A stretch of DNA of 64,000 bases from Patescibacteria group bacterium (GTDB lineage: Bacteria > Patescibacteriota > Minisyncoccia > Ryanbacterales > GWA2-47-10b): positions 87,699-151,698 of the forward strand of contig JBBTSE010000007.1 in NCBI GenBank assembly GCA_038064855.1, given 5' to 3'. Position numbers and translations under genes: made by a program. Under the pieces are notes generated by a model. It did no database searches. It saw only the letters and a program-made list of their open reading frames with translations, and was not told where the DNA came from. How positions within the stretch are numbered: position 1 is the stretch's first letter; the number at the start of each line of letters is the position of its first letter. Of this stretch, positions 57,649-59,210 are shown in pieces.

Positions 57649-58215
57649 GTGAAAAACACTAGTGTCTTCATCACCATCGACGGAGTCGATGGTGTCGGAA
57701 AGACCACGGTGGCGCATCTTTTGGCCTCCGATGGTATATTCCACTACTATAAGTCGCCGGCTGGGCCATTCGCTCAGCTTAGGAAAGAAGTTGACAACCA
57801 CGCAACACCAATTGAGCGGTACTGCTTCTATCGAACAGCGACACAGTATGACTCAACCAAGATCGGCCAGCTACTGGAGAGAACTTCGGTAGTGTGTGAC
57901 CGCTACATCACATCCACAGCTGCCTACCATATCGCTATGGACGCAAGGATTCGAGTCGTTCATAACGATGAGGGGCTACTCAAGCCACACTTCGCGTTTT
58001 TGCTCGGTGCCCGTTCCGAAGTCCGCGACAAACGGATACTTGAACGTGCGGAACTATTGAGTGACGCAAAACTTGAAGGAGACAGCGCACTGCTTGATCG
58101 GGTCGCTCAAATCTTCATGTCGTTTGGTCTGATCTACATTGATACCAGCGACATCACCGCGGAGAAGGTAGCCATAGAAATCAAACGCATTGTTTCGCGG
58201 GGAGGACGAACATGA
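57649..58215 (+). CDS. thymidylate-kinase-like P-loop nucleotide kinase
   Basis: FITIDGVDGVGKTT Walker A, DRYITSTAAYH (Tmk DRY/lid region) similarity; 188 aa. Confidence 0.6.
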   Translation: MKNTSVFITIDGVDGVGKTTVAHLLASDGIFHYYKSPAGPFAQLRKEVDNHATPIERYCFYRTATQYDSTKIGQLLERTSVVCDRYITSTAAYHIAMDARIRVVHNDEGLLKPHFAFLLGARSEVRDKRILERAELLSDAKLEGDSALLDRVAQIFMSFGLIYIDTSDITAEKVAIEIKRIVSRGGRT

Positions 58216-59210
58216 ATATTAAACCTCTCTCATATGCTCATATCATATCTATCGCTGACGCGTGGCGTGATATGGGGGGTAATGCCGAAGTGGAAATCGG
58301 TGCGCTTGAACCGCTTTTGTGGCGGGATGGGCAATACCGTATCCACGACGTCATCGGCATACTTACAGAACGTGGTTTCAAGGTCTCGATGACCACCAAC
58401 GGTCAACTGCTAGACGTCTTCGCAGAAAACTTGAGCCGTGCTGGTCTGTCGCTCATACGGACAAGTTGGCACTCAACCGATCCATTGATGTTCAAAGAAA
58501 TCTCCGGAGGTTATGGCGATTATGCTCGGTTTATGCGTGGAGTAACACTCGCGCTTGAATCAGGCATCAAGGTCGCTTTCAACCGAGTCCTCTTCAGAGG
58601 GTATACGGATGATATCTCGGAACAACTGACGTTTGTCGAACGCTACAAAAGCCGACTCAAGCTATATACCCTCATGTGGACACCGCAAAGCGCGTCTACA
58701 CACAAGAAGTTCTATCAAGACTGGCGTCCAGTGGTGCGAACATCGGTATTGCCACGCACCATTCAGATTGTCAGAGTGAAAAAGCAACTCGGGCGCGGTC
58801 GTCTTCGGTTCCATTTGGCTGCCGGCGGATCTGTTGAGGTAAAGTTGGGAGACGCGCTGGATCGTAGTATTAACCCCTGCTCGTCGTGTTCATTTAAAGA
58901 TGAATGTGAAGAGGGGTTCGGTGACTATATTCGGGTTGACCCACGACTACATCTCTACTTCTGCTACATGCGTAGGGATATCGGTTTCCAAATACCCGAG
59001 TATTTCGGAAGACCGGAGAATCTGAAGCAGAAGTTGCAAGAGGTGCTTGGGGATACGAATGTCAAGAATCTCCTTGCGACTGCACCTTTACGTCTCACTG
59101 TGACACCGTTCTGCAACTTCAACTGCAGATCGCCTGGAGAAGAGCGGGGGTGGTGCATGGAGGAACCGGGTGAATATGCTTATCCGAAAATCCGCCCTTC
59201 TCTCCTGTAG
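58212..59210 (+). CDS. MoaA-like radical-SAM-fold protein, apparently circularly permuted (Cys-loop strand at C-terminus)
   Basis: N-terminus aligns to MoaA region after the cluster loop (…EVEIGALEPLLWRDG ~ LTGGEPSLRRD; SMTTNGQLL ~ TTNG; twitch-like CSSCSFKDEC…FCYMRRD); C-terminal 80 aa resemble MoaA N-terminus (EYFGRP ~ DNFGRKI; LRLTVTPFCNFNCRSP ~ [16 protein letters not shown]) with third Cys displaced (C-x3-C-x9-C); 4-nt overlap with kinase gene. Confidence 0.5.
   Translation: MNIKPLSYAHIISIADAWRDMGGNAEVEIGALEPLLWRDGQYRIHDVIGILTERGFKVSMTTNGQLLDVFAENLSRAGLSLIRTSWHSTDPLMFKEISGGYGDYARFMRGVTLALESGIKVAFNRVLFRGYTDDISEQLTFVERYKSRLKLYTLMWTPQSASTHKKFYQDWRPVVRTSVLPRTIQIVRVKKQLGRGRLRFHLAAGGSVEVKLGDALDRSINPCSSCSFKDECEEGFGDYIRVDPRLHLYFCYMRRDIGFQIPEYFGRPENLKQKLQEVLGDTNVKNLLATAPLRLTVTPFCNFNCRSPGEERGWCMEEPGEYAYPKIRPSLL

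Follow-up and report, generated by a model that had tools for sequence, protein, structure and literature searches.

Radical-SAM (S-adenosylmethionine) enzymes form one of the largest enzyme superfamilies and are recognised, by readers as well as by most profiles, from an N-terminal CX3CX2C loop that follows the first strand, beta1. In a stretch of 64,000 nucleotides (here referred to as the window) from contig JBBTSE010000007.1 of a Patescibacteria group bacterium, an open reading frame (ORF) was found whose product is very probably a MoaA-like radical-SAM enzyme in a natural, conserved, circularly permuted form, with beta1 and the cluster loop placed at the C-terminus. A preliminary description of this DNA had left two readings side by side, namely a genuinely permuted protein or a degenerate or fused remnant of a tandem duplication. 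The former is borne out by more than 110 full-length homologues with the same order, drawn from numerous samples and several phyla, by collinearity with MoaA once the sequence is re-joined, and by profile matches in swapped order. Homology, swapped order, a clean breakpoint, conservation and purifying selection are established, and the permuted MoaA-like core, itself under selection, keeps all putative cluster ligands. The parts of the ORF are as follows:

58212..59210, + strand: whole ORF, permuted MoaA-like radical-SAM protein (332 aa)
58212..58841, + strand: helix alpha1 and the remainder of the partial (beta/alpha)6 barrel (residues 1-210; from TIGR02668, hhalign, invariant columns of alignment A1 and AlphaFold2 (AF2) secondary structure)
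58878..58964, + strand: auxiliary-cluster Cys region, C223-x2-C226...C251 (residues 223-251; from hhalign to a MoaA-like profile)
58965..59081, + strand: two-helix linker from the old C-terminal region to the relocated beta1 (residues 252-290; AF2 helices 268-279 and 284-290)
59082..59162, + strand: relocated beta1 (LRLTV) and cluster loop C301-x3-C305-x9-C315 (residues 291-317; AF2 strand 293-295, hhalign)
59163..59207, + strand: C-terminal tail (EPGEYAYPKIRPSLL; residues 318-332), matching the MoaA segment between the Cys loop and alpha1

The protein begins after the usual site of beta1 and CX3CX2C, because the Pfam and TIGR profiles match from about positions 28 and 40 onward: Pfam Radical_SAM (PF04055) pairs residues 6-134 with profile positions 28-157 of 166, and TIGR02668 (MoaA) pairs residues 6-210 with positions 40-238 of 303 (E 1.3e-23). 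That the ORF starts past the Cys loop, at about MoaA profile position 40, had been recognised correctly in the preliminary description. Upstream of the ORF, a C..C motif is absent from every forward frame, and the ATG overlaps the stop codon of an upstream kinase gene (ATGA). The PF04055 match provides the homologous partial (beta/alpha)6 barrel core expected of the superfamily, and its motifs are GALEPLL (30-36), in which GALEP (30-34) is the equivalent of the GGE motif, MTTNGQ (60-65, with TTNG at 61-64), SWH (85-87), and FNRV (123-126); the GGEPLL-like and TTNG-like motifs reported earlier are both present and conserved. A Cys triad in this half had been called twitch-like. The cysteines are indeed conserved, and there are four of them, but they are equivalent to the MoaA auxiliary site: C223, C226, and C251 align with the CX2CX13C of MoaA in hhalign, an 11-residue insert in the site holds the fourth, C232, and all four are invariant in alignment A1, as are their counterparts in alignments A2 and A3. 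The twitch/SPASM interpretation was rejected on this alignment, and no SPASM/twitch Pfam match was obtained at E values up to 1. As for the arginines of MoaA, R17 corresponds to the invariant R294 and R268 to the invariant R241, while R266, K69, and R71 are not conserved. R17 and R268 are among three arginines mutated in PDB 2fb2; R17A is visible in the alignment.

The C-terminus reads APLRLTVTPF-C301-NFN-C305-RSPGEERGW-C315-ME, followed by the tail, and within these last ~44 residues LRLTVTPFCNFNC-RSPGEERG-WCMEEPG shares homology with the strand beta1 and the cluster loop that radical-SAM enzymes have at their N-terminus. Separate profile-profile alignments of core and C-terminus, a check proposed earlier, served as the formal test. 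Against a MoaA-like profile in hhalign, residues 1-285 pair with positions 41-299 (E 1.4e-34), and residues 286-332 match the canonical MoaA-like profile with a probability of 93% (E 2.4e-7) and a 7-residue gap between the second and third Cys. Against a non-permuted sister family, the same C-terminal segment aligns without a gap (probability 96.8%, E 2.5e-10). Since the C-terminal 47 residues and the core fall in separate MoaA-like stretches, the breakpoint is clean, with MoaA positions ~13-36 placed after ~41-299. The earlier claim that the last ~80 residues resemble a MoaA N-terminus thus holds for the last ~44 only; residues 252-282 pair with MoaA sequence that lies beyond the auxiliary cluster, and the parallel drawn from an 'FGR' motif to the MoaA N-terminus is spurious, as the FGR segment lies in that same part. 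Nor is the third Cys replaced, as had been stated. It is displaced by a 7-residue insertion between Cys2 and Cys3, which gives the C-x3-C-x9-C spacing, and the aromatic residue before it is kept. The strand and putative cluster-binding loop homologous to the three-Cys loop region of radical-SAM enzymes thus lie C-terminally in this protein, and the spacing is x3/x9.

Profile searches were repeated with a re-joined construct in which residues 289-332 were placed before 1-288. The profile envelopes then reached position 12 (TIGR02668) and position 2 (Pfam), the score rose from 83.4 to 86.5 bits, or to 93.4 bits when the 8-residue RSPGEERG insert was left out, and other MoaA models behaved in the same way. 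In phmmer, the re-joined sequence was collinear with Staphylococcus aureus MoaA (1tv7) over residues 15-182, across the artificial junction, with LRLTVTPFCNFNC...WCMEE lying over the N-terminal segment of MoaA. The tail aligns with MoaA residues 32-45 across the same junction, Y324 and P325 being conserved, and should lead back toward the N-terminus.

The arrangement is not peculiar to one genome. A search of 5.8 billion proteins returned 158 matches, the full-length ones being ~335 aa long with 97-100% query coverage, mostly from Patescibacteria (candidate phyla radiation, CPR) and carrying no better label than 'radical SAM protein', 'MoaA', or 'cyclic pyranopterin phosphate synthase'. This search for homologues with the same order, suggested in the preliminary description, led to 113 full-length homologues, of which 111 carry C-x3-C-x9-C within their last 70 residues; an N-terminal CX3CX2C occurs in none of the 113. 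The Trp before the third Cys (W314) is found in 107 of the 111. Across an alignment that extends to sequences of 48% identity, C301, C315, W314, and R294 do not vary and C305 hardly does. The linker (252-290) is the least conserved part of the protein. Selection was gauged from the proportions of nonsynonymous and synonymous differences (pN and pS) against 15 related loci, which are given in place of dN/dS because the synonymous sites are saturated (pS 0.7-1.0). The pN values are 0.06-0.26 for the loop segment, 0.08-0.36 for the core, and 0.12-0.58 for the linker, so that the C-terminal loop is under purifying selection at least as strong as that on the core. With a loop pN no higher than that of the core, a degenerate protein or fused remnant does not describe the present-day state; duplication followed by fusion is a plausible historical route to the permutation.

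These data also bear on whether the order could be an artefact, whether by mis-assembly, by frameshift, or through a recent fusion without function that a tandem duplication left behind. Nothing speaks for this beyond the unusual order itself, and its probability is negligible. Several contigs, 50 kb to 1 Mb in length, encode the identical protein, and the longest of them measures between 0.2 and 1 Mb; the copy described here comes from a metagenome assembly (Hain_H51), presumably of Hainich groundwater. In addition, 158 homologues were obtained, 33 loci were located in species-representative genomes, no alternative frame carries a motif, and pN falls far short of pS. Both artefact and decay are thereby ruled out, and the earlier judgement that a simple frameshift is unlikely is upheld by the homologues, the identical copies, and the lack of an alternative frame with the motif. 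Relatives are absent from IMG/VR, and a phage collection gave only weak, partial MoaA-like matches; a phage origin of the family was discarded, as no family members were present in the viral collections.

Relatives exist in both segment orders. Of 1.84 billion cluster representatives searched with the family profile, 4740 matched, 52 of them below 1e-30, and by reading the sequences of the 50%-identity cluster representatives three groups were sorted. Group A (~37 representatives, including fragments) is permuted, with a C-terminal CNFxCxFPxxxxxWC and spacers from x8 to x14; group B (17 representatives) has the same extended loop at the N-terminus, in the usual order; and group C (5 representatives) is permuted with a canonical CX3CX2C at the C-terminus (e.g., ...IRAVINNYCNFQCSWCHENG). 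Beyond these groups lie ordinary MoaA-like proteins. The group-A profile matches group-B proteins in swapped order, with profile positions 277-319 on residues ~14-63 and 5-270 on ~50-340, a two-stretch match that reads as the signature of circular permutation. Group B, the sister family (alignment A2; e.g., P0162, P0175, and the lokiarchaeotal P0270), shares with group A the CNFxCxFPxxxxxWC loop, the G(L/M)EP variant of GGE, the four-Cys auxiliary site, and a core that aligns with an hhalign E of 2e-48, but its loop is N-terminal. Because these non-permuted sister proteins have the same insertion, the x9 loop is a clade trait existing in both orders and not damage. Group C in turn shows that a textbook radical-SAM motif can serve as the C-terminal element.

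Order and loop type occur in all four combinations, and therefore one of the two characters changed more than once, with loop insertions and deletions the cheaper explanation. A neighbour-joining tree of the core placed A and C together with 30% bootstrap support and A, B, and C apart from MoaA with 59%, from saturated distances and an alignment guided by the group-A profile. No tandem-duplicate intermediate with both an N- and a C-terminal loop was seen among the top 150 representatives, and word-indexed searches with the group-B and group-C profiles returned mainly canonical MoaA and few members.

Several of these relatives stand in gene settings of their own. Group-B genes differ from the ORF in their partner, which is neither a kinase nor a Gre homologue: an uncharacterised protein of 1550-1570 aa always follows the radical-SAM gene (L039:6853-11565, L040:7021-11739, L041:5024-9682), and its sole Pfam match is a weak NACHT P-loop. 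At L039 the pair adjoins McrBC and an N6/N4 methyltransferase, and one group-B member is from Lokiarchaeota; group B and its giant partner look like an undescribed two-gene defence-island system. The permuted P0163, with a canonical C-terminal CX3CX2C, lies in a cluster resembling sugar-nucleotide metabolism (L044:2762-12213), together with genes for inositol-phosphatase-like, AIRS/PurM-like, and DegT aminotransferase proteins, an NTP transferase, and an HD/TPR/AIRS protein; it seems that more than one pathway has recruited permuted enzymes. Other permuted members have a longer loop spacer (CNYKCSFPHTAKGYNSLWC in P0387), among them P0386, which is labelled Prevotellaceae; at the one locus examined (L045:4741-7092), the P0387 gene directly follows that of a 406-aa DCD (dCTP-deaminase-like) protein and adjoins a transposase. 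At three patescibacterial loci (L033:4028-4306, L036:2476-2769, L038:4001-4219), only the last ~73-97 codons of the permuted gene are left. The remainder at L033 and L036 spans the last auxiliary Cys through linker, beta1, and Cys loop in an intact small ORF (73-79% identity); at all three, core and kinase are replaced by unrelated genes, with the CYTH gene or the Gre homologue still adjoining. These short pieces are either remnants or stand-alone pieces.

From the chain order (alpha1, beta2 to beta6 with the SAM-binding motifs, the auxiliary-cluster region, the two-helix linker, and then beta1 and loop), a structural model is proposed on the basis of homology. C301, C305, and C315 should hold the SAM-binding [4Fe-4S] cluster, the chain would end ~17 residues after the loop at the point where the N-terminus starts, and the relocated strand would sit where beta1 canonically lies, either in its own chain or in that of a dimer partner. 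The enzyme would bind two [4Fe-4S] clusters and cleave SAM. An AF2 model made from 24 sequences (predicted local distance difference test, pLDDT, 89; predicted template modelling score, pTM, 0.88) has helix 8-20 as alpha1, alternating strands and helices, two helices within 268-290, and a strand at 293-295. Covariation between the C-terminal segment and the core (mutual information with average product correction; 143 sequences, effective number 85) was set aside, as subfamily signal rather than contacts dominates it.

Several observations count against a permuted, MoaA-like active enzyme as described. The gain on re-joining is modest (3-10 bits); the loop reaches a pLDDT of only 62-80 in the AF2 model, with beta1-beta2 pairing and the geometry of the three Cys deduced from homology; and homologue P0101 has Ser at Cys305. 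In addition, GGE is GALE, and MoaA K69 and R71 are V and I with an invariant Glu between them, which leaves room for a different substrate and perhaps even for another way of binding SAM. The functional interpretation, lastly, draws only on the gene neighbourhood.

Some of this could be accommodated by a pseudo-enzyme or binding protein derived from radical-SAM ancestors, with SAM cleavage lost and the C-terminal Cys motif structural or binding a non-SAM metal centre. The non-canonical C-x3-C-x9-C spacing, the change of GGE to ALE, and the Ser at Cys2 in one member would suit such a protein. It is nevertheless highly improbable, given that the same extended loop stands at the canonical N-terminal place in the sister family, that one permuted group has the canonical CX3CX2C, that conservation extends to the aromatic residue preceding Cys3 and to the counterpart of MoaA R17, that purifying selection is strong, and that loop insertions are known in active enzymes such as QueE (CX14CX2C). 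A different possibility is a domain-swapped dimer, in which the C-terminal strand and loop would complete the barrel of the partner, and the active site would form in trans. MoaA does dimerise, and in ThiC the cluster is contributed by a C-terminal domain across the dimer interface; moreover, the linker here is long (~40 residues) and poorly conserved, and small ORFs with only the last ~90 residues survive in some genomes. Closure in cis is the better fit to the clean breakpoint, to a tail that is the very segment leading back to alpha1, and to a monomer model that is confident overall, and a swapped dimer is considered unlikely.

The permuted protein was compared with several known families. 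Three MoaA models (TIGR02666, TIGR02668, and NF001199) give scores of 83.4 (for TIGR02668), 59.4, and 62.3 bits, with cut-offs of 325, 284, and 231. In comparison with MoaA (GTP 3',8-cyclase; 1TV7/1TV8/2FB3), the segments are permuted, the loop is CX3CX9C instead of CX3CX2C, the auxiliary site has an 11-residue insert with a fourth Cys, the N-terminal motif is lacking, Mob_synth_C (PF06463) finds no match although it matches canonical MoaA proteins, the chain ends in ...RPSLL with no Gly-Gly tail, and no moaB/C/D/E lies nearby. Molybdenum-cofactor genes were likewise missing from the annotated neighbourhoods and from the Pfam-scanned neighbours of three non-CPR loci. Given the scores below cut-off and the missing N-terminal motif, Mob_synth_C match, Gly-Gly tail, and molybdenum-cofactor genes, the protein is something other than MoaA. 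Nor is it a viperin: NF038283 gives 14.8 bits (cut-off 180), and PADLOC pVip matches residues 32-147 only (E 7e-5). Like pVip, it is encoded next to a small nucleotide kinase of VakA type (cf. the PADLOC model set 'Viperins associated with kinases'), and its relatives lie near defence or mobile genes; unlike pVip, it has a MoaA-type auxiliary cluster region, which viperins lack, is permuted, and is accompanied by a Gre-factor homologue and a CYTH protein. Non-canonical cluster loops are known from QueE (CX14CX2C), HmdB (CX5CX2C), and ThiC (C-terminal CX2CX4C), so that a cluster loop tolerates insertions and cluster Cys need not be N-terminal. In QueE and HmdB, however, the insertion is between Cys1 and Cys2 and the loop stays N-terminal, and ThiC carries its cluster on a distinct C-terminal domain instead of on a relocated barrel beta1; to our knowledge, none of the three is a circular permutation of the core. 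A full-text library of ~8 million papers contained no description of a circularly permuted radical-SAM core and nothing relevant on radical-SAM enzymes with a C-terminal motif, which, for one library, is not proof of novelty.

The genes around the ORF in the window are as follows:

57149..57637, + strand: Gre-factor homologue (162 aa), coiled coil and GreA/GreB C-terminal domain (Pfam GreA_GreB, E 1.6e-10)
57649..58215, + strand: nucleotide kinase of thymidylate-kinase fold (188 aa; Pfam Thymidylate_kin, E 8e-13)
59244..59822, - strand: CYTH (triphosphate tunnel) protein (192 aa), convergent with the radical-SAM gene (Pfam CYTH, E 5.6e-5; PDB 1yem, E 1e-4)

The stop/start overlap between kinase and radical-SAM gene is consistent with translational coupling, and the two are adjacent in every complete locus of four phyla. 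The kinase was dismissed as a bona fide Tmk, since its TIGR00041 score (53 bits) is below the cut-off of 83; in PADLOC it matches PDC-M51B (E 2.9e-23) and VakA (E 3.3e-17, model positions 4-162 of 163). We take VakA to stand for 'viperin-associated kinase', as PADLOC gives no description and groups it with its kinase-associated viperin model; a full-text literature search for PDC-M51 gave nothing relevant. The Gre homologue aligns with Escherichia coli GreA (1grj) over residues 36-146, the coiled-coil tip included. Where GreA has the pair D41 and E44, its tip motif GAMxSxxDT has S43 and D46, neither of which varies among 30 sequences. As this homologue with its tip motif is found with the radical-SAM and kinase genes in four phyla, it may be a specialised secondary-channel factor. 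In the CYTH protein, both glutamates of the ExExK motif are kept, E4 and E6 of EIEAKF being invariant.

Some 25 CPR loci have the order Gre homologue, kinase, radical SAM, and a convergent CYTH gene, which adjoins the radical-SAM gene in nearly all CPR loci, with flanking genes that vary. Outside CPR, the CYTH gene is absent, and kinase and Gre homologue always accompany the radical-SAM gene in other arrangements: kinase, radical SAM, and Gre homologue in Acidobacteria; kinase and radical SAM with a Gre-homologue match in Verrucomicrobia; and a divergent Gre homologue followed by kinase and radical SAM in Gemmatimonadota. Because both genes are kept across phyla in differing arrangements, they are dedicated partners and not housekeeping neighbours. 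Further neighbours of the relatives are a CARF/PD-(D/E)xK protein, McrBC, methyltransferases, recombinases, a dCTP-deaminase-like protein, and the giant protein with the weak NACHT P-loop. The first of these is a 500-aa CARF + PD-(D/E)xK (Card1/Csx1-like) protein close to the Gemmatimonadota module (L034:1168-2670; PADLOC E 5e-15); Card1/Csx1-like CARF proteins are effectors of the cyclic-oligoadenylate type.

By analogy with MoaA, which acts on GTP, and with viperin-kinase pairs, the enzyme might act on a nucleotide supplied by the coupled kinase; a nucleotide-modifying activity is a tentative proposal, with somewhat less than even chances, and its function is possibly defensive. The Gre homologue hints at a tie between the secondary channel of RNA polymerase and the product, or the system as a whole, the CYTH protein suggests triphosphate chemistry, and the module possibly acts on or protects RNA polymerase. 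A more specific scheme, which seems rather unlikely as a whole, would make the protein the catalytic centrepiece of an undescribed viperin-like nucleotide system of four genes in CPR and three in other phyla. In this scheme, the VakA-like kinase would supply a phosphorylated nucleotide, the radical-SAM enzyme would turn it into a modified nucleotide, e.g., a chain terminator, the Gre homologue in the secondary channel would excise the analogue from host transcripts as self-protection or else deliver the effect, and the CYTH protein would hydrolyse or cyclise the triphosphate.

The permutant would mean that the radical-SAM fold tolerates circular permutation at the junction from loop to alpha1, and that motif-based annotation misses or mislabels permuted enzymes, which are filed as 'MoaA' or 'cyclic pyranopterin phosphate synthase'. 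With both orders extant (groups A and C, and group B), the family offers a natural system for how permutations arise, and its fixed association, in four phyla, with a Gre homologue and a kinase of viperin type hints that nucleotide chemistry and RNA polymerase are connected in a way not yet explored.

Elsewhere in the window, positions 61467-63032 (- strand) encode a member of the aromatic amino acid lyase/aminomutase family (PF00221, E 6e-160) with Thr-Ser-Gly (GTSGDL) in place of the Ala-Ser-Gly that forms the MIO (4-methylideneimidazole-5-one) group. It is adjoined by genes for proteins of 531 aa (59865-61460, - strand) and 1503 aa (49585-54096, - strand), neither of which has a Pfam match.

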